Source: Cetorhinus maximus (Eukaryota). Taken from it: a stretch of DNA of 64,000 bases. Below, piece by piece: positions 8,679 to 61,593 of the stretch; positions within the stretch are counted from its first letter, which is position 1; each line of letters begins with the position of its first letter. The DNA is taken from NCBI RefSeq assembly GCF_964194155.1, contig NC_135879.1, positions 138,632,001 to 138,696,000 of the forward strand. Direction: 5' to 3'. The translations under genes were made by a program, and so were the position numbers. Under the pieces are notes generated by a model, which was not told where the DNA came from, ran no database searches, and was given only the letters and a program-made list of their open reading frames with translations.

Positions 8679-9207
8679 AGATAAACAAGCCTTGTGTCAA
8701 AGCAAAAGAAAATTGACACTTCAGATCTTGAACATGGACCTAAATAATGATGGAAGTTGGATAAATGAATGTTTTTACTTTCTACTTGCAGTCTCATGGT
8801 TATATAATCATTAAATATTACAAATCATATGTGGAAAAACCCTACTTACCAGAACTATTAAGTCAAATTAACTAAAACCAATTTTGCTCCATTGTACTTC
8901 TAGATTAGCACCACAAGACCTAAAGGTCTGTAAACTTGCACGTATAAAGCCATAAAATCTCCAACAAATCAGGTTTTTAAATCCAAATATGCAGTAAACA
9001 TTCCTATTATCATTACAATTTCGACAACAATTCATGGTATATCACAAATCAATAAAATTAAATATCCTAAGTTAAATGTAGGAAAAATGGAACGTAATAA
9101 AGAGTGGTTTAAAAATAATAAAGGAGAGTTATTAATGATTAGCTAGTTGTCAGTTATTTTTATGCTAATAAATTCATGAAACTAATAACAGGCTAAACCA
9201 TGCTTGA

Positions 9208-9367
9208 TAAAAGCAAAAAACTGTGGATGCTGGAAATCCAAACCAAAAATAAAAATACCTGGAAAAACTCAGCAGGTCTGGCAGCATCTGCGGAGAGGAA
9301 CACAGTTCTGTTCCTCTCCGCAGATGCTGCCAGACCTGCTGAGTTTTTCCAGGTATTTTTATTTTTG
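9208..9367. mobile_element. Palindromic Penelope-like insertion
   Basis: Perfect ~57-bp inverted arms (AAAAATACCTGG...GGAGAGGAAC / GTTCCTCTCC...CCAGGTATTTTT); 14-bp TSD TAAACCATG(C/A)TTGA at 9194-9207 and 9368-9381. Confidence 0.8.
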
Positions 9368-10451
9368 TAAACCATGATTGAGTTGGGTGTTAAAAGGTCT
9401 AGGTTTGCGGATTCTTCCCTTTTTATTGCTGTTACAGACAGACTTTGACTCATGGTTCATGACAGTTTAGGGCTCTATTGTAAAATAGAGTATAATTGGA
9501 GGAAATACTAGCAGTGTAATGACAATTTCACAATGCATTTACACCAAAACACAGCAAAGTGTTAAATAAGCTTCACTTTAGTTTTCGTTGTCATTACTAG
9601 CTGACAAGCCAGAAAGGTTCCCTAATTCGGTCTGCTTGTCGCACCATTAGTTTCGTAGATAAAATTGATTATTCACAGGGTCTATGAAGAGAACACTGAT
9701 GCATTTGGTACTCAGTTACAAAAATTTTCACTCCCATTTGGGCTGTCTCACCACACACTAAGTTTGTGCTTGCCCACCAGCATGCTACAACGCATCTTTT
9801 GTCAGGCACATTGTGCTCAACTCCACCATCCCTGCCCCCCACTTACCAGTCCTCTGCAATTTAGTTGCTCCACATTTTGTTATTCAAATAGCAAAATTTT
9901 TGAATAGACTTTGTGAGTAAGCTTTGTGAAAAATTCATATCGCCTATTACTAAATGTTCTGCCCATCGACAGTGAAACTTTCTTTAAGGCAAGCACTAAG
10001 GCTTGGCTTCCAGTCAGGCAGGGAGCCGTTTGGTGGAGGCCACAGGACAAGAAAGGTCTACACCCCTGAAGGTAGGTGAATGGGTGGGGAAGAAAAATAT
10101 TGGAGACTGGGAGGTGGGGGGTCAGGGGACACAGGATGAGACCTTGTAGGGAGGTTTAGGGAAGGGGGTGTGGGGAAAAATTGGAAGGATAGGAGGAATG
10201 GGGTGTCCAGATACATTGAAGGAAACATTAGTGCTGGATCCAGCATGCTTGCCAATTTGAAAAGGCACACCTTTCTTGGATCCAACAATCCTCAACTGGG
10301 TTTAGCTGCAAGGTTCCTTGAGCCTCGCGAAACCTGACCATCCACAGTTAAATTTCAAATGTTGAGGAACAAGGCTTGCACCCTCATTGCAATATTTAAG
10401 ATCCACCACTTAGTCTCTAATGTCGAACAATGTGAGATCAAATGTATTTGC

Positions 10452-15624: not shown

Positions 15625-15759
15625 CAGCACAAGACAAAAAGAGCTGGAAAAACTCAGCAGGTCTGACAGCATCTGTGGAGAGAGATAGAGTTAACGTTTC
15701 CAGCACTTCTTATTTTTGTTTCAGATTTCCAGCATCCACATATATAATATACCCTTTAT
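15625..15759. mobile_element. Penelope-like inverted insertion, internally deleted
   Basis: CTGGAAAAACTCAGCAGGTCTGACAGCATCTGTGGAG arm joined to an opposite-strand tail; 14-bp TSD ATTAG(G/T)TCCGATGA at 15611-15624 and 15760-15773. Confidence 0.75.
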
Positions 15760-44000: not shown

Positions 44001-44808
44001 GGAATCCCGACACACTGACTCCATGGAAATTGTCCAGGAAGTTTGAACTTTCAATGGGAAATTCCCCTGCTCCTGGAGCCTTCTGAAAAGGTCTCCAACT
44101 CTGAGTTAGAGTCGGAGTCTTCAGGCAATTCCAACTTACTTACCTGGACAACTACCCAGGAAATGTTGACAAAAAAAATTCTAGTCTAACTCCTAACTAG
44201 CTCCCACCACCCACCCCAACACTCCCCCAAGCCCAACCTAACTAACCTCCACCCCCCAACTCCAACCCCCTGACCCAGCTAGCCTGACATAACAACCCTG
44301 CCCAACCTGACTACCCCTGATGCACCTGCCGACTTCATCCAGCTGCCACCCTCCCCACCTGCCTACTTACCTCACCCATCCTACCCACTTCCACACCTAC
44401 CATTCACTCATTCACACACGCTCACTCACTAACACACTGAAAAGCTGTTGAAATGTCCCAAAGCTTTTCAGTATGTTAGTGAACACCTACCAGAATACCG
44501 CAATGAGGGCCGTAAAAAGGGAATGTAACTTTTTCTCCCCCAGTGATCCAGGGCTACGTGGAAGCAGTTCGATGGGAGATTACTCCACATTTCTGAAGTA
44601 GCCAGGATTGGAAGACTGGCCAGGAATGTGGAGTTCCATCGTGGAGCAGAAAAGTAGGAGTGGAGTGGCAATCTAATGGTGATTCCCGCTCCTTGGAAGA
44701 TTTGGGCCCATTATTTCAGTTACTGTGCATGTATCCTTTGGTTATTCTTGAAATTGTTGAACAGGCATGTGCAAGGTTCAAATACATGGATCAACAATGA
44801 ATGTAAAA

Positions 44809-45027
44809 TAAAAGCAAAATACTGCAGATGCTGGAAATCTGCAACAAAAACAGAAAATGCTGGAAAAAGTCAGCCAGTCTGGCAGCATCTGTGGAAAGGG
44901 AAACAGCGTTAATGTTCTGAGTCCAATATGACTCTTCTTCAAAGAAAGACTTGAAACATTAACTCTGTTTCTCTCTCCACTGATGCTGCCAGACCTGCTG
45001 AGCTTTTTCAACATTTTCTGCTTTTAT
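44809..45027. mobile_element. Palindromic Penelope-like insertion (older)
   Basis: TAAAAGCAAAATACTGCAGATGCTGG...TGAGTCCAATATGACTCTTCTTCA arm followed by its inverted copy. Confidence 0.8.
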
Positions 45028-48000
45028 ATCATGGGTTTTCTGTGTTTTAGAGATGTACTGTTCAATCTGGGTACCTGTATTATTTCAGGACACGTCCGTT
45101 TGCATACATTCAGTTGAGAATACGGCATATCTGTTAGTGATTTAGAATCATAGAATGGTTACAGCGCAGATGCAGGCCCAGCACAGGAGGCCAATCAATC
45201 CATGTGTCTGTGCCAGCTGTCTTTAAGAGAAGCTCAGCTAGTCCCACTTCCCCACCATTTCCCAACGGCCCTGCAATTTTTTCTCTTCTAATCAAGTAGT
45301 TTAAATATCATAAACTGTAAAAGTGAAAGTCAAGCAGTTTACCTTCACTACAGACCATTATAATTCACTCACAAGCATCCAATATTCACAGGTTAGTGAA
45401 TTTTTTGATACTTTTTAACAACTGTGTCATCACTTTATGACTATTTCATTTGACGTTGTAAGGTTGATGTTAAATTAGTACCAGAATCATATCCCAATTA
45501 GTCTTGAATTATATCCAAGGCTACATGTTTTTTTTAAGTGAATAAATCAAATTCCATTTTTATCGAACAGAGTTTTGGAATTCTTAACCAGTATTTCAAG
45601 AATGGCATTAAGTGCTTCTCACAATTTATAATTAGGCCTACTCCTTTGTGGTGACTAATATGTAAAATGTCATTTTTATTACAAAGAATTCATATTTTCT
45701 GGGACTTTTGGGATAATACCACAAGTCCAAACTTTATCTTTAAATGAAAACCACAAATCAACAGGCTTGATTATACCCCCATGACCCCCAATAGTTCAAA
45801 CTGATTACTGTCATGCTATTGTGATAGCAGGCAGCCAAACACACTGAACATGTTTTATATGTATGCTTCTCCAAATTTGACGTAATATTTTCAAATCTAT
45901 CTGAAATTATTTTTAATATAACAACATGAGCATAAAGAAAGAAGTCAACATGTAATCCTCTAGTAAGTTGGCTATATAAATGTTTTTGTTTGATGGCAAT
46001 TGAATCTATAACACCCACTTCCAAGTTGCATCTGACATACTAATGCAACTAAAATGATCGGCAACTGTTTCTTTTGAAAGAAGGGCTCAAAAGAATCTAA
46101 TTAGATAAATTGTCACCAATGAATGCAATCATCTTGACAAATGAGAATTTGCTTTGACTTTTGATACTTGTGGTTCACCACCTATCAATCCACCAAAACG
46201 AAATGATTTCTTTCAAAGCCAGATTGAAAGAAGGGCACCAGATGTCATATAAACTTAATAGCATTAGTCTTCTTCCCATTGCTCAGTGACATTCAATAGT
46301 GAGCGCATGACTTCCAGAAAATACCATCGACCAACATGTGTCAATAATTCTTTTTGACACATGGTTACTAGTCATACCGCTTACGATTTAACTTAAAGTT
46401 AAATAGTAAATTATAAGTTTACAACCACTTTAACTGGCAAGATGTATTTTGTACAATGTATTTAAATTCTTGTTATTAAGTCAATTTTTCCACACTATAT
46501 GAATGGACTGTACTGCGTCCTTCAAATTTTAACTCTAGACTGCTTCTGATGGATCTTCTGCATGCAAGGAAAATAATGAACACCTAGCAAAACACAACAA
46601 TGATGAATGCGTCTGGAATATTTGTAACATTGTTTGTATTGATCATGTTGAATACATCTTTTATGTATGTATAAAAAAGTGTCTAAAAGGAAAAAGAATG
46701 GAGAGTGCTGCATGGCAAAGCACCAGTATGTGCCAAAGCACAGGCTTGCTTCGCCCACAGGTTCAGTGGGTGGATGCCTTACGTCGGGCATGAACGACTG
46801 CAGCAGAGTTACACAAGACAATGATGTTGACTTTTACATCAACATTTTGATTTTTTTGGTCATTTATTAGTCTTATATCGCAACTACCATTATGGTAAGT
46901 ATTATAACTATGCATTTTTTATATTCCATATAATATTGTAAAATTAATAAAACATAATTCATGGTGCCTATCATGGCAAAAGAGCAGAATATTTTTTGCA
47001 TAACGTTCAATATAACTGAAGTCCTAACACAGGCCTATTTTTAAAAAATACAACAGTAATTGCGAGTGAAAACCTCATAGCACCAACTAGTCCTGATGCA
47101 CATTTAACAGACTTAAATGTCACCAGTAATTCGGGCTGCTAATTGTGATATGCAAGTATATCAAAAATCCTGCCACTGTGAGAAATCTAGCATGATTCCT
47201 CTGCATCAGTTCTGACACAGCATCTCAAGCAAAGAATTAACCTGTCTTTCACATTCAGATGTGGACTGATCTGCTATGCATTAAAAGCATTTTCTATTTT
47301 TATTTTACAATTCCACAGCTGGTGTGTGAATTATTTATATATGTTATAGAGAAAATAAATCTATGATTATGATGCATAGCTATCTGATATTCTGAATGGA
47401 TACTCCTAGTGAAATAGTTGTATTTGGAAAACTAATAACCGCTAATGCTGACAATTAGCAATGAAAATTGTAAACATGATGCTTATTATGTAAGACTTAT
47501 TTTGTTAAACATGTAGTAAAGTAGTTGTGTTTTGTTTATAACAATGTTCAAGATTAGGTACATACCATGGAGGCTCACAACCACCCATGAGTAGTTTCAA
47601 TCAATGATTACTTAAATTGATAAATTTCTCAAGCTCCATATACTAACTATTTGGGGTCTCTGATTTAGGATTTATCCATCAACAAGGTAACAGCACTAAG
47701 CGCAGCTCTTTCTAACTTCCAAGTCCACAACATTAAAATGGGACAAATCAAGGATAATAAACACAAATGTAAATAAAACTAAGTTATCTACATTGACAGG
47801 GCTTGTGAACCCTGTATGGGTCATAGTCGGGATACCCCTACCCTATTGCCTATTGTAAAAATGGTCAGCCATGTCATTAGTATCTCATTGATAGAAACAA
47901 ACATTTTCAATGCTATGATGTGAGAAATCGCAAAAGAACTGAACTGCTCAAATCAAACAAGGGATAAATAGTAATTTTAAAAAGTTTATTTGAGCAGATG

Positions 48001-49899: not shown

Positions 49900-50520
49900 A
49901 ACAGCCCGGGTTTTCAAACCCTACACAGGGCGCGATGCAAAAACTAAGGATGGTTGCAGCCTGCATATTATTTGCCTCAAAACACGAGCCCAAGTGTGCA
50001 AGGGGCGAGCACAAGGCGGAGGGTGAGATAGTTTTCCCCGTCCTTTCGGGATTCCTCAGTGAGGGAAGCAGCGAGAGCTGCTGCCAGCTGAGGACCGGGG
50101 CGCTCGCAACTCTTACCTGTGTGCCCGAGGGAGGTGGAGGGGGGGGAGGAGGGGCTCCAAGCCTCCCGCTGAAGGGCTGAGCGGCTGCAGTCCGCTGCCA
50201 GAGGAGGAAAAGCCCTGAGCCGGGAAAGTTGGCTTGCTCCGAGTGCGATGCTGCAGCGGCAGCGGGCGACAGCCAAGTGCGCGCGCCAGGCCGGCTCGGG
50301 GCCGCACGCATTCGGGAGCGTGCCTCGGGAGCGCGCCTCTCTCTGCTGACACAACCTCCGGCAACGCTAATTTATGCTGATCCAGAGTGACACCCGAGTG
50401 ATGACCGTCCACTATCCATAACCTGCGTCAAATTGCTGGAGGAGCGACTCGAGCACACAGGTCCCGGGCCACTCGAAAGCTAAACACGCTCTAGCACGCC
50501 TCGGGGTCCTAGCGCCCACC
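49900..50520 (-). promoter_or_regulatory. CpG island / promoter of the minus-strand gene
   Basis: Non-repetitive GC- and CpG-rich block in AT-rich surroundings; CRE-like TGACGCA at ~50424-50430. Confidence 0.75.
50117..50350 (-). other. Putative exon 1 (5' UTR) of the host gene
   Basis: Consensus donor CAG|GTAAGA at 50117/50116 inside the CpG island; the 5' end (TSS) is a guess. Confidence 0.6.
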
Positions 50521-50540
50521 CAGTCCAAAATACACACAGT

Positions 50541-51260
50541 CCAGTTAAACATATACCCACCCACATAAACCACCAACCCAAACTAAACACACCTAGCCCA
50601 GTTAAACATATACCCACCCACATAAACCATCCACTTCAACTGAACACACCTAGCCCAGTTAAACATATTCCCACCCACATAAACCACCAACCCAAATTAA
50701 ACACACCTAGCCCAGTTAAACACATACCCATCCATATAAACCACCAACCTCAATTAAACACTCCTACCCACATAAACCACATAAGCCATCCACTTCAACT
50801 AAATACCCCCGCCCACATAAACAACCCACCCAACTAAACACAGGCGTCCCAACCACATGAACCATCTACCACCAAAGCAACCCACTTTAACTAAACACGC
50901 CCGACCACATAAACCACCCAATCCCAACTAAACACTCGTACCCACATATACCACCCAGCCCAACTGAATGCACAAACCCACATAAACTACACACTTCAAC
51001 TAAACACAGTTTCCCAACCACATAAACCACCCATTCCAAAGAAACACTCCCATCCACACATTCAACTCATCCCAACTAAACGCACCACCCCGCCCCCAAC
51101 CCTTTACATAAACCACTCAATCACGTAAACCACCCACCCAACCTAAATACCGCTTCCCAACCACACAAACACAGGCACGCCAGCTAAACGCGTCCACCCC
51201 CATAAACACACCCCCCAACATAAACCAGCCACGCCAACTGAGCACACCTTCTCCTCCACC
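50541..51260. repeat. A/C-rich minisatellite, 57-bp period decaying into ~19/38-bp units
   Basis: CCAGTTAAAC starts at 50541, 50598, 50655 and 50712; CACATAAACCA and CAACTAAAC subunits continue to ~51240. Confidence 0.9.
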
Positions 51261-53154
51261 CACACAAAGCCCATGTAAACTGTGCTAGCACTCAATCGCC
51301 TCACTGCCTCTTCCATTGCTAAAATTAGATAAGTACTGATATTTCTTCAATTATCTTTTGGCATAATTGTTGCCGTTGTGCAGCGGTATGCTAGGTTTGG
51401 CGGTGCTATGCTACAGTCAGCTCATTGTTTTTATTTTTAAATGTAAATACAATATGTGCTCCTTTCGTGAAGGATGCTGATGTGATTCTGGTGTCTGCCC
51501 CGTACATCCGCAAACACACGACAGAAAGGAGGATCTCAATCTGATCGTTTTAGTATTCCTTTCAATCGCTGTCACTCTGTTCCCTATTCTGAGCGTTCCC
51601 CTTTCTGGTTTTCCAAGGAATCGTCCAGGGGCCCTTTGATCGTTTCTGTTGCAACTGTCACTTCGTTTACTTATTTTTGCCTTGCTTTTAATTTGTAGAT
51701 TATTTATAAACTGAACAGATACCTTATTGTAGCTAATATGTGTTTGTTTGATATTTATGAGTATATTTTTGTCAGATCATAATTCTGTTTATATATTTGT
51801 CCGTATTTACGCTGCCAGTTATGACCGAACACTTCATCTGTTTGAATTTGCGTTGTGCGGAAAGCATGAATGACAATGAAATAGCTGGACATTTATAATC
51901 ATTAAAACGAGTAACCTGGTATGCAAAACGTGCTAATCAATAAAGTGATCCGTTGCTTTTTTAACCTACTTTATAATCTAATTTACAGCACTTGACGCCA
52001 GTATAAAGCACTTCAAGTTATACAGATCAGTCATTTAAATTCTGCCTATGTACACTTCCCATGAATAATTAAATGCCTGTATTTTCACAGCCTCCCTTGA
52101 CAAGGAAGATAGAGAAACTGCAGGAGAAGAGGAGAACAGACAAAGATTGTGAATGCGTTAACTGTTATTACAACACTTACATGCTCTGCGTCTGTTTCTT
52201 TTTTTCCTTCTTTATTCCTGGACTAGTTTCTTTTGCTGTATGGATATTAGATAAATGCATTGCTTTGTATTCTTTTTTTCAATTCATTGAATGAAGTTCA
52301 CCTTTTGTCGTTTTGAGTTAAACATGTTTGTAATTGCATTTTGCCTAACTTGCAGAGAATGAGCACGCACTACAGTTTATTAAACCAAATTAATAGAATA
52401 ATAAATGTATTACTTTTTTAAAATATAGTTAAATAATGTTTGCCATTTTAGTACATTCCTATAAACCCCTACTAAATAATGTCACATTCAACAAAAATAA
52501 ACACTCCTAATATTTCAATGTGAATTGATTTTTCAGAATAACTTTTCTGGGGCACTTCCTATATTAAACTTAAAGATGGCAGAACCAATCTTTATATAAT
52601 GTTAGGGTCTGTTTGATTTGTTACATTTTGTTGAGAAAAGAAACATTTTGGAGCTGCCATGCACAGCATTGTGCCCATGGCAACTATGGAAAATGTAAGT
52701 ATTAAACATGACAAACATTGTAATCAATAGGCAAATATGTATTCGGTATGCCAAATGTATACACCTAAAATTATTAGCTACAATGCAACAAATGCATGTG
52801 GATAAAGGGCCTTTTTTCCCATTCTATATGAGTCAGCAAAGCCTCCAAGAATTGTATTCCCCTTTGCAATGCATTTTTTAGTGTTTCCAGATTCAAGTTT
52901 CTCTGTAAATAAGCACACAAGTACATGGTTTTTAATCATGGTTTCAGGGTTGTTTCACCGGTGTCAGCTCCCCTCTATTTTCTCACCCAGGTTTTCTTCG
53001 TCCTCAAGTAATTTTACACAACCATTCAGCTATTGATCATGAAAGGCATTTTGGAGGCAAACCCCAAACCTATTGTAACAGGGCTAAGACCTCACATATT
53101 TTTATGAAATATATATGTTATATACATCAGTCATGACTAATTCCTAAAATTTTA

Positions 53155-53382
53155 GCAGAAAATGCTGCAAAACCCAGCAGGTCTGACAACATCTGTGGAA
53201 AGAGAAACAGGGGTAACGTTTCGAGTCCGTATGACCCTCCTTCAGAGCTCTGAAGAAGGGTCATATGGATCTGAAATGTTAACTCTGTTTCTCTCTCCAC
53301 AGATTCTGCCAGACCTGCTGAGTTTTTCCAGCATTTTCTGTTCATATTTCAAAATTCCAGCATTTGCTATATTTTGCTTTTA
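53155..53382. mobile_element. Palindromic Penelope-like insertion nested in the LTR
   Basis: Inverted arms centred on TTCAGAG|CTCTGAA (53247/8); exact 13-bp TSD TCCTAAAATTTTA at 53142-54 and 53383-95. Confidence 0.85.
53243..53287 (+). ncRNA. Minimal type-I hammerhead ribozyme-like motif (mirror copy on minus, 53252-53208)
   Basis: CAGAGCT-CTGAAGA-A-GGGTC-atatg-GATCT-GAAA-TGTT-AACTCTG: helix I, CUGANGA core, helix II, GAAA, vestigial helix III. PLEs are known carriers of such motifs. Activity untested. Confidence 0.55.
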
Positions 53383-55502
53383 TCCTAAAATTTTAAAACT
53401 GGACAATGGCCTTTTAAAATGACTGAAGCCATGTCTGGCTGTGACCTTCACACAATAGGAGCTAATCTAGCAGTATCAAAGACATTTGTGCCTTGTTATC
53501 TCTGACGAGACTCTAATAACCCCTGTGGGCTGCAGAGACAAAACTCAAAGGGAATTATACAAAGGCCATTTACATTTCATTAGCCAGGCAAGGCCACTGG
53601 AGTCTACTAGTTTTCTAGAACAAAGAGCACTGCAACCTTGTTTTCAACTTCATAATGGTTGGGACATTGACCATCTTAGGAACCCAGACAAAGGAATACA
53701 TACCCTTTGTCAAACCCAAAGTGGAGAGGTGGGGGTCATGTGACATGAACCCCTCCTAACTGGGAGAACCATTTATTCTGTCTTGCTGGACTGTAAATTG
53801 TCTGCCATCTCCTAACTACCAAACAGCAACTCAGAAAAGGGGCTTTGTTCAGGTTTGAAAGCCTGGTCCCCATCTACATTATTTCTACTGGAACTTCTGA
53901 ACTTCTATACCATCGCCTACAGGACTCTGCGTACCTATCTCATCGTGGAAATCATTTCCAATGGAAAAGTCAATTTCCAGCATCAGTTATCAGCCAACTG
54001 ACCTCTGCGAAAGAATACATCATTGGACTTTGATTCTGGACTTTGGACTCACGTGAAACAATAATGCCTTGCTCTGTGGTCTTTGCCCTGTAAATCTTTC
54101 CTCCTCTATCCCTCATGTATTGTATGAATGCAAAGGGGGCTGTGTAGTGACATCTCCTCCCAGGTTTTGAGTGTGTGAAAATAAACTAACCCTCTAAGTT
54201 CACCCTATTCATGTTTGCTGTGGGGTTATTAATAGAAATTGGATCACACCAAAACTGAGGGAATGGGAAATACACCTCCGCAAATAAAGACATTTAAACT
54301 AAGACACCTTTCTGTTTACAGATGGGCGGTGAGAGCAGAAAGCAGGGTTGTTTAAATTCAACCCTCTTACGTCCCTAACACTATCCTGGATTGAATCAGT
54401 TCATTTGAAGCACGAGCACGCAAAATCTATTTGTCACACATTGAATTGTTTTCAGTTTATAGACTCTAAACTATAAATAAAGTTAGGTAGTTTGATGTTT
54501 TAAAGATAGCTGTACGTCAATATTTGAGGCTAAATGATCGCACACTGACACTTAACGCACCAAATGCAACAAGATTAAAAAACAATAAATTTCAATTTAG
54601 GGACATGGTGCCATGGTAAACTATAATACTTCGTGTTGAGCCTCAATTTCAATCTAAACTAGAATGATAGGATAAAAGTTTATTTCTATAGTGCAAGTCA
54701 GCATCATAACAATGTCCATAATTCACATAAAAATTGGGAAAATTTGGAAATATCAAAGCAAAGGAGCTGCAACAGCATGTGTTGTGGAAAATGAACACAT
54801 CACATTGATTCTACAAGTGGTGTACTTCCTGAGGAGCATTGGAGAATCTTTACCTTGCACTTAGCCTATATTATGCCCATCTTGAAATGATTTGAACTCA
54901 GCACTAGATACCAACAGTCACTATTGTTTTACCCCACAGAACTGCCATTCATGATGCTTTTTTTGGAGGGAGGAGAACTTGCATTATTTTCACGGCCAGG
55001 ATTTTACGCACTAGTAGTGGGTGCACATTCAACCCAGGGAGCATTAAATCTCACATGAAGATATCAGGTGCACGTCCCGACCCTATCACGCACTCGCACG
55101 ATAGTTCAGTCAGCGGGCACGTTCAGCGCTCAGAAGCATGCCCGGCGACAATTAATCAACCACTTAAGGCAATTAAAAGTGCAATTGAATTAAATTTTAC
55201 ATGCGGTTTCATGCTCATCACATGAGCAACATGGGCAGGCAGCCAACTCGTTTATTCACTTTTCTCATCCAAGGGTGGGATAAAAGGGGAGAGGAGCGTT
55301 GGCTGTGTGAGCTGCTGGAGTTCGTGTAAGAATTTGATACTGCATGTTTGCTAAGATTTCAGATCTTTTCCTGTGGTTTCTTCTGAAGCGTTTGCTTTGT
55401 TAGCTTTGTTTTGAGGACTCCTTTGTTTTGTCGACCCTCTTGGAGCATTTCAGCCGAGTGCAGCCCTCATTGCATAGAGCAGTGCCAGCTGTATTTCAAC
55501 AG

Positions 55503-60626: not shown

Positions 60627-61593
60627 TAAAAGCAAAATACTGCAAATGCTGGAGATCTGAAATAAAAACAGAAAGCGCTGGAAAAACTCATCAGGTTTTT
60701 TTAAATTCATTCATGGGATATGGGCACCACTGGCTAGGCCAGCATTTATTGCCCTTGTTCAGATGGCATTTAAGAGTCAAACACATTGCTGTGGGTCTGA
60801 AGTCACATGTAGGCCAGACCAGGTGAGGACAGCAGATTTCTTTCCCTAAAGGACATTAGTGAATCAGGTGGGTTTTTACAACAATCAACAATGGTTTCAT
60901 CATTAGACTTTTAATTCCAGATATTTATTGAATTCAAATTCCACCATCTGCATTCAAACCCAGAACCCCAGAACATTACCCTGGGTCCCTAGAGCACTGG
61001 TCCAGTGACAATACCACTACACCACCACCTCCCCTAGGTCTGGCAGCATCTGTGGAGAAGAAACAGAGTTAACATTTTGGGTCCAATATGACTTCTCCCA
61101 AAGAAGAGTCATATTGGACTTGAAATGTTAACTCAGGTGCTGCAGGGAAAATCCTTTTCCTGGTATCTGATTCAGCACAGTGCCCTCTACAAGGGATCTG
61201 TTGCATATGTGAACAGACAAGAAACAATGAGGTTCTTCAACAAATCAGATCTGCACAAAGACATGCAGAGTCCAAACAAGGAAGTGTAAAGCAGGAAATA
61301 TAGATTAGATTTAAAGATGTACAAAAAGTCAAATAAAGATTGAGAAATACAAATAGGAGTAAGGGAGAAGGGTAAGGGACAGAAAAAACATTAAACTTCC
61401 AGTATTAATTTTCTTCTCAAGGAATGAGACTCCACACAGTAAAATTACATTTTCAAGGCCCGAGAGATTGTTCAGCAATAATTATTGCTTATGGTGCCAT
61501 TAATAACACTTAGTCCTAACTTTTTGAAGATATCTTTAACTCTCTCCACAGATACTGCCAGACCTGTCGACTTTTTTAAGACTTTCTGTTTTT
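60627..61593. mobile_element. Palindromic Penelope-like insertion, twice interrupted
   Basis: Arms at 60627-60696/61036-61098 and 61099-61134/61540-61593; ATTACTAGAAATCT repeated at 60606-19 and 61594-607. Confidence 0.75.
60697..61035 (-). mobile_element. tRNA-derived SINE, same family as 2057-2373
   Basis: Reverse-complement match through core and tail; a partial third copy lies at 62253-62422. Confidence 0.8.

Follow-up and report, generated by a model that had tools for sequence, protein, structure and literature searches.

Fold-back ends of a Penelope-like element in Cetorhinus maximus break at the start of a minimal hammerhead motif, upstream of its predicted cut

In the 64,000-nucleotide stretch of Cetorhinus maximus DNA analysed here (the window), a short insertion at 53155-53382 folds back on itself, with a hammerhead-like motif on each strand at the point of inversion. 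The locus raises the question of how such a mirror is formed, and whether a ribozyme decides where it turns. The first-pass annotation had read it as a Penelope fold-back carrying two head-to-head minimal hammerheads, with a breakpoint set by the ribozyme-made RNA end. Both motif strings that it gave, on the plus and the minus strand, are in the sequence as written, and its bounds for the insert were exact, being set by a directly observed 13-bp target-site duplication. As shown in Table 1, element positions are numbered from core C3 as +1 (53250 on the plus and 53245 on the minus strand), which puts the predicted cut between +31 and +32.

Table 1. Features of the fold-back insertion and of its sister copies, in window positions
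Feature	Positions	Strand	Basis
Target-site duplication, left copy, 13 bp	53142..53154	+	identical to 53383-53395
Target-site duplication, right copy	53383..53395	+	identical to 53142-53154
Short arm, element end -4 to about +92, without tail	53155..53249	-	profile match
Long arm, element end -4 to +133	53246..53382	+	profile match
Tail of 30-40 nt between the two preferred 3' ends (about +100, +134); long arm only	53350..53382	+	end positions; PMC11167929
Self-complementary AGCT, junction common to both arms; likely first four bases of the element RNA	53246..53249		junction counts, native upstream
Minimal hammerhead, minus: core 53245-53239 (A9G), extra A 53238, helix II 53237-53233/53227-53223, predicted cut 53215/53214, mismatched helix I	53211..53249	-	
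Minimal hammerhead, plus: core CUGAAGA 53250-53256, extra A 53257, helix II 53258-53262/53268-53272 (G10.1-U11.1), predicted cut 53280/53281	53246..53284	+	
Sister fold-back, long plus short arm, decayed cores	44808..45031		profile match
Sister fold-back remnant, decayed cores	61036..61138		profile match
Sister fold-back, arms begin about +33 and +36, adjoining the predicted cut; the window's exception	9206..9368		profile match
Sister fold-back, arms unequal	15632..15740		profile match

The insert is 228 bp long and consists of two ends (pLTRs) of a Penelope-like element (PLE) joined head to head, with no open reading frame inside. Its inverted arms, 53169-53247 and 53248-53326, are 79 nt each and 84% complementary, with a spacer of 0 and 13 differences in the 79; the profile match of the short arm runs on to +103 through partial likeness to the target duplication. 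The exact 30-bp junction of the insert recurred at 185 loci genome-wide against 0 for the control, so the junction at 53246-53249 is not a matter of chance. The palindrome CAGAG/CTCTG had been annotated as a helix I strand common to both ribozymes; this was right for the AGCT at its centre but not for the CAG, since the native sequence before the junction is TTTAGCT/TTCAGCT and the preceding CAG is the other arm read in reverse. An assembly artefact was considered and rejected, as the arms differ at 13/79 positions, their lengths are unequal and a target duplication is present. In run X20, labelled as another organism, contig pieces with about 95% likeness were found over 52900-53109 and 53314-53650, matching the left flank and the right arm with its flank, and the insertion may therefore be older than a species split. 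The contig pieces from four runs show no transcript starts or ends, and none reaches across the whole of this region.

Both motifs of the insert are damaged. Helix II of the plus-strand motif reads GGGTC/GATCT with a G10.1-U11.1 pair, position 15.2 is U, and the AACGTT palindrome is lost in GAAATGTT; the minus-strand motif has the core CUGAAGG (A9G) and two mismatches in helix I. Neither combines an intact core with a G10.1-C11.1 pair. The locus is an ordinary dead and decayed stub of a Penelope-like element.

A family profile built from 10 copies gave 16 matches within the window, including the sister fold-backs of Table 1. The sisters had been cited for a helix II of GAGTC/GACTC in which pairing is preserved, A-U versus G.U. 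The copy at 61103-61134 in fact reads GAGTC/GACTT and has lost CUG, the copy at 44920-44942 carries C3U and a broken GAAA, and the change is one-sided, so it is no covariation. The fold-back at 9206-9368 is a young-type copy. Elsewhere in the window, a DDE_Tnp_4 transposase fragment lies at 103-732 on the minus strand (E 4e-14), and a degenerate C/A-rich tandem array with a period of 57 nt at 50480-51250. At 53305-53382 and at many other loci, the two preferred 3' ends come after similar T-rich stretches, TTTTCTGTTTTTAT and TTTTGCTTTTAT, which are perhaps a repeated signal for two reverse-transcription starts; each of them also looks like a splice acceptor.

The family is very large: 55 profile matches were obtained in 540 kb of evenly chosen stretches, or about 400,000 when scaled to the genome. 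Its identity as a PLE with minimal type-I hammerheads, as first annotated, was observed directly. At two loci (L023, L031), frames for reverse transcriptase (RT) and GIY-YIG precede the motif on its strand, the RT being followed by a C-terminal GIY-YIG domain tied to the end sequence. Pfam matches were RVT_1 at E 5e-6 to 2.5e-5 and GIY-YIG at E 3e-4 to 5e-4, both genuine although under the curated cut-offs. A CCHH motif with two cysteines inside GIY-YIG was present in L233, L234 and L239. The native sequence upstream of the motif is a pyrimidine-rich pLTR, and complete pLTR-ORF-pLTR copies made up 3 of the 16 long-frame loci fetched (L230, L233, L234), with the ATG at about +165 to +175, past the tail (ATA in one copy). 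The pLTRs around the ORF, the optional 30-40 nt tail (ends about +100 and +134) and the inverted 5' copy are those of endonuclease-bearing PLEs. Between RT and endonuclease, a CX4CxxC linker was found in L023, L233, L234, L239 and L244; this CX2-5CxxC type belongs to Neptune, and is common to Nematis too, whereas a linker zinc finger is absent from Penelope/Poseidon. The linker and the CCHH motif together point to an element of the Neptune type. Non-LTR retrozymes have at least two head-to-tail units with hammerheads; here the arms are head to head, with no tandem at the locus. On contig C32, many near-identical RT matches with the same 469-aa open frame are clustered, perhaps amplified within a larger repeat.

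At family level the motif follows the minimal type-I plan CUGANGA...GAAA...UH, with an extra base, a helix II and a palindromic 15.2-16.2. In a set of 97 motifs, collected with a search pattern that fixed CUG..GA, helix I has 4 bp and the helix II pairs were kept in 85-92/97; a two-sided change in helix II occurred once (U-A 77, C-G 6) and came from one subfamily. The extra A between core and helix II, which had been called unusual, was present in 95/97 motifs, and a base between 9 and 10.1 is given as a conserved feature of minimal hammerheads in the excerpted text of PMC4209133. With Rfam covariance models at E<=5, no hammerhead was among the 11 matches in the window, only hairpin-type chance matches.

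A free-core search, with positions 6 and 7 free and the CpGs required intact, returned 45,604 exact motifs in the genome. Among the 100 matches listed (first 6 Mb, one contig; counted by eye), U was the commonest base at position 6 (52), followed by C (32), A (14) and G (2), that is, 86/100 of these least-decayed motifs are without the core A6. The U6/C6 subfamilies, two of which had 6,421 and 5,770 exact matches, kept helix II, one of them via a compensatory pair. In a sample enriched for long frames, their motif divergence was 0.016-0.044 versus 0.094, and the longest open frames were carried by these low-divergence subfamilies. The lineage of 53155-53382, the old CUGAAGA lineage, has A6. 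Around the motif, with loose ends at 53271, a further subfamily with the core CUGAUGA and a helix II starting AGGUC was abundant in four runs (X16, X20 and X1, with a similar one in X2). Dimer cleavage of PLE-linked hammerheads has reportedly been described by Lunse et al. In another hammerhead, A6C lowered Mg2+ cleavage by orders of magnitude (PMC7151607, in the part consulted), and minimal hammerheads showed no cleavage as monomers and low cleavage as dimers according to the excerpts of PMC4209133. Judged from these sequences, cleavage may be dispensable in the low-divergence U6/C6 subfamilies.

Copies of the family were collected as one set of 91 arms with an exact 33-mer at +59..+91 (2,977 genome matches; 89 loci among the 100 matches listed) and another of 29 arms from a distal similarity search, and those used for truncation counts were chosen by the stretch downstream of the cut. 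Among 90 non-inverted copies, 26 extended past -150 and 64 were truncated within -149..+58. Forty of the 64 truncations fell in the 15-nt edge at -11..+4, where 4.6 were expected (p=1e-29); 4 lay at the cut (+26..+38; 4.0 expected) and 8 at -149..-12. This pile-up of 5' ends at the motif's edge is a direct observation. Breakpoints are non-random with respect to the motif, in line with the annotation. In a genome-wide count limited to the old CUGAAGA lineage, the 5' edge of the motif had 365 symmetric fold-back junctions and the cut site 3, with 0 for the controls, and the scarcity at the cut stands although the cut-site half-pattern is commoner than the edge half-pattern (38 versus 21 of 91). 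The junctions and truncations together place the breakpoint at the beginning of the motif, 35 nt upstream of the predicted cut; it is not the ribozyme-made RNA end.

Of 50 edge junctions listed and scored by eye, 25 had a 4-nt spacer and 11 a 2-nt one; in the other 14 its length varied over 0-12 nt. In AGTT lineages, where the palindrome is absent, junctions lie at the edge too, with 6-11 nt between the cores. That the hot spot is an alignment artefact was considered and rejected, as the flanks of the edge-truncated copies differ and 18/51 have a detectable target duplication. Short internal duplications or deletions beginning at the motif's 5' edge were seen in L094, L095 and L112, suggesting template slips at this place.

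Why copies end there may lie in the promoter. A TATA[AT] box was found 29-31 nt upstream of the A in AG(C/T)T in 61/86 copies with native upstream sequence, in two versions that go with different lineages, TATAAA and TTATATT, and TCAGTT at the edge resembles an initiator. Because of the box at this distance, the motif's 5' edge is probably the transcription start. A cap-derived G does not stand out: the starts scatter over about -6 to +1 with filler bases, and those at -3 are preceded by G in 7 cases and by T in 6. The main rival to a transcription start is the native edge itself, a quasi-palindrome, TTCAG-CT-CTGAA, which could promote fold-back and predicts the 2-nt spacer seen in 11/50 junctions. 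TATA plus Inr are described for the rotifer pLTR in the excerpts of PMC3846280. The internal promoter of D. virilis Penelope is TATA-less (PMC2377424), which counts against a TATA-driven start.

The strength of the hot spot differed between lineages. In a scripted lineage call on 131 motifs (24 without a call, 1 with G6), edge breaks in A6 motifs were 17/23 in the old TATAAA lineage and 5/18 in the young TTATATT lineage (p=0.005). Within the young lineage they were 7/30 for U6 and 2/35 for C6, and A6 differed from C6 (5/18 versus 2/35, p=0.037) but not from U6 (p=0.74). When counted by eye among 100 matches listed for each class, native upstream sequence was lost within about 11 nt in 53 of AA, 31 of AT, 16 of TT and 10 of CC; the AA count used a stricter pattern, and about 5 are doubtful. 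Lineage explains the strength of the hot spot more than A6 does (p=0.005 versus p=0.74), with promoter, age and core confounded.

The 3' ends provided the other half of the answer, and these lie at about +100 or +134. Among 93 head-to-head pairs in all the loci collected, some of which were picked by junction patterns, 67 combined a long and a short arm, 1 had two long arms, 1 had two short arms and 24 had an arm ending elsewhere. The single copies comprised 192 long, 158 short and 31 other, with overlapping loci kept; with such a split mixed pairs are expected in about half by chance, and 67/69 were observed (p=2e-18). This long-plus-short rule, itself directly observed, fits priming on both target strands. 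The earlier stop was in the long arm in 39/67, in the short arm in 15 and in neither in 13, a weak measure since the profile ends overlap at the junction. A tail on one arm only was already known from the excerpted PMC3846280. The anole protein, predicted to be a dimer, nicks the two target strands, extends both of them and uses two internal starts that bound the tail; insertion in vitro was unaffected by dead ribozymes, so cleavage is not needed (PMC11167929).

On this evidence, 53155-53382 probably arose in one event in which both nicked strands were primed and both copies ran off at the RNA's transcription start. The element protein would nick both target strands about 13 bp apart; reverse transcription would be primed by one strand near +134 and by the other near +100. 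We infer different starts on the two strands within one event; in bulk in vitro data no difference in start site between the strands was seen (PMC11167929). Both cDNAs would read through the ribozyme, still uncut, and end where the RNA begins, at the A of AG(C/T)T, and the two cDNA ends would anneal through the self-complementary AGCT, followed by fill-in. The hammerheads would be passengers: as the motif begins where the RNA would begin, it would mark the breakpoint without causing it. Two points weigh against this explanation: cut-site junctions were counted for the old lineage alone, and the copy at 9206-9368 folds near the cut. A wider reading is put forward tentatively, with rather less than even confidence: the protein dimer would prime the two strands at fixed +100 and +134 in every event, transcription would be TATA-driven from the hammerhead's first base, and the recent subfamilies would have spread after A6 changed to U or C with the fold kept, the motif perhaps working now less by cutting than as a structure at the 5' end or a site for protein binding.

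The fold-back could instead be due to structure or sequence at the ribozyme edge, with the cDNA snapping back or switching template at the quasi-palindrome or at a DNA-form helix I, so that the second arm copies the first (self-priming, Arkhipova 2013). The native upstream sequence is able to pair with the core start, the 4-nt palindrome is common among the junctions listed (25/50, with the 2-nt form in 11/50), the arms mostly carry the same subfamily letter (6/50 mixed, by eye), and junction palindromes are so read in the excerpts of PMC3846280. Self-priming is nevertheless unlikely here, as it leaves unexplained why the second arm uses the other RT start (67/69) and why simple truncations with duplications end at the same place, and AGTT lineages give near-blunt joins. 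Ribozyme activity might also shape the breakpoint indirectly, an intact core favouring ends at the edge, for example by a jump between cleavage products joined by helix I. The share of edge-broken copies does drop with core damage (AA 53, AT 31, TT 16, CC 10 of 100 listed each, by eye), A6 differs from C6 (p=0.037), and 9206-9368 folds at the cut; but A6 and U6 with the same promoter type do not differ (p=0.74), the cut site shows no excess (4/64; junctions 3 versus 365), and catalytic mutants insert normally in vitro (PMC11167929), which makes such an influence improbable.

A 3' splice acceptor at the edge (pyrimidine tract plus YAG), with short copies derived from spliced RNA as in D. virilis, is very improbable. 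The upstream sequence is acceptor-like and the D. virilis intron ends at the helix I 5' end in the excerpts of PMC4209133, but the AG is kept in truncated copies (starts at -4, n=9; -3, n=7; -2, n=2) and these are without a common upstream exon. Least credible of all is the proposal of the first-pass annotation, that bidirectional ribozyme/hairpin cassettes are functional as such and that the fold is set by the cleaved RNA end. Its large family was confirmed, the exact junction occurs 185 times, and the fold-back lengthens the potential plus-strand helix I to 6/7 pairs; the working cassette was not borne out. RNA folding prediction put the cost of forcing the hammerhead in the fold-back RNA at 43 kcal/mol, with a helix II pair probability of 0.0 on both strands. 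Each transcript contains one sense motif paired to its own antisense, and a cis dimer is impossible since the two motifs are on opposite strands. With the motifs predicted to be buried and both cores damaged (A9G; G10.1-U11.1), a working two-way cassette at 53155-53382 is unlikely. In addition, junction spacers range from 0 to 12 nt, and 35 nt separate the breakpoint from the cut.

Two-strand priming is familiar from L1 twin priming, in which both target strands prime and a 5' inversion results; there each cDNA copies its own part of the RNA, whereas here a single part is copied twice, from two fixed starts. A close parallel is the inverted-pLTR insertion of endonuclease-positive PLEs (Adineta Pen2a_Av), which in the excerpts of PMC3846280 and PMC8557442 has the same head-to-head 5'-truncated end, palindromic junction, one-arm tail, target duplication and TATA plus initiator-like motifs. 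Here, unlike in those excerpts, both arms are minimal, the interior is ORF-free and there is one preferred start point; those insertions have been explained in print by self-priming on an antisense template, whereas the counts here favour two-strand priming. For metazoan PLE minimal hammerheads, the excerpted text of PMC4209133 (Cervera and De la Pena 2014) reports the same 4-bp helix I, unpaired base 9/10.1, G10.1-C11.1 and palindromic 15.2-16.2, as well as opposite-strand motif pairs and the motif in fish Neptune elements. In contrast to that text, helix II here has 5 bp, the pair distance is zero instead of 100-700 bp as in Schistosoma, and the least-decayed subfamilies have U6 or C6, which it does not mention. 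The green anole Poseidon PAc (PMC11167929) shares the two internal RT starts around the tail, nicking and extension of both strands, and cleavage unneeded in vitro, but belongs to a different clade, and its ORF starts in helix II, against an ATG at about +165 to +175 here. Non-LTR retrozymes (bioRxiv 10.64898/2026.07.22.740005, in excerpt) are also short, non-coding and pLTR-related with type-I hammerheads, but form head-to-tail tandems rather than one head-to-head pair. In the open-access literature searched, no genome-wide count of PLE breakpoints relative to the hammerhead and no genomic test of two-strand priming were found. The layout, the motif and the extra A are already published; the genome-wide counts and the link between hot spot strength and lineage are what this analysis adds.

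These family statistics bear on the origin of inverted ends with a one-sided tail and on the role of the minimal hammerhead. The 67/69 rule predicts that each strand uses a different start within one event in vitro. From the 365-to-3 junction count, cleaved RNA would seldom serve as the template, and the least-decayed subfamilies, having lost A6, provide natural variants bearing on whether cleavage matters. If the wider reading is true, the hundreds of thousands of stubs would be a natural run-off experiment for Penelope transposition, and the most recently active subfamilies would have reached tens of thousands of copies after A6 had been replaced.
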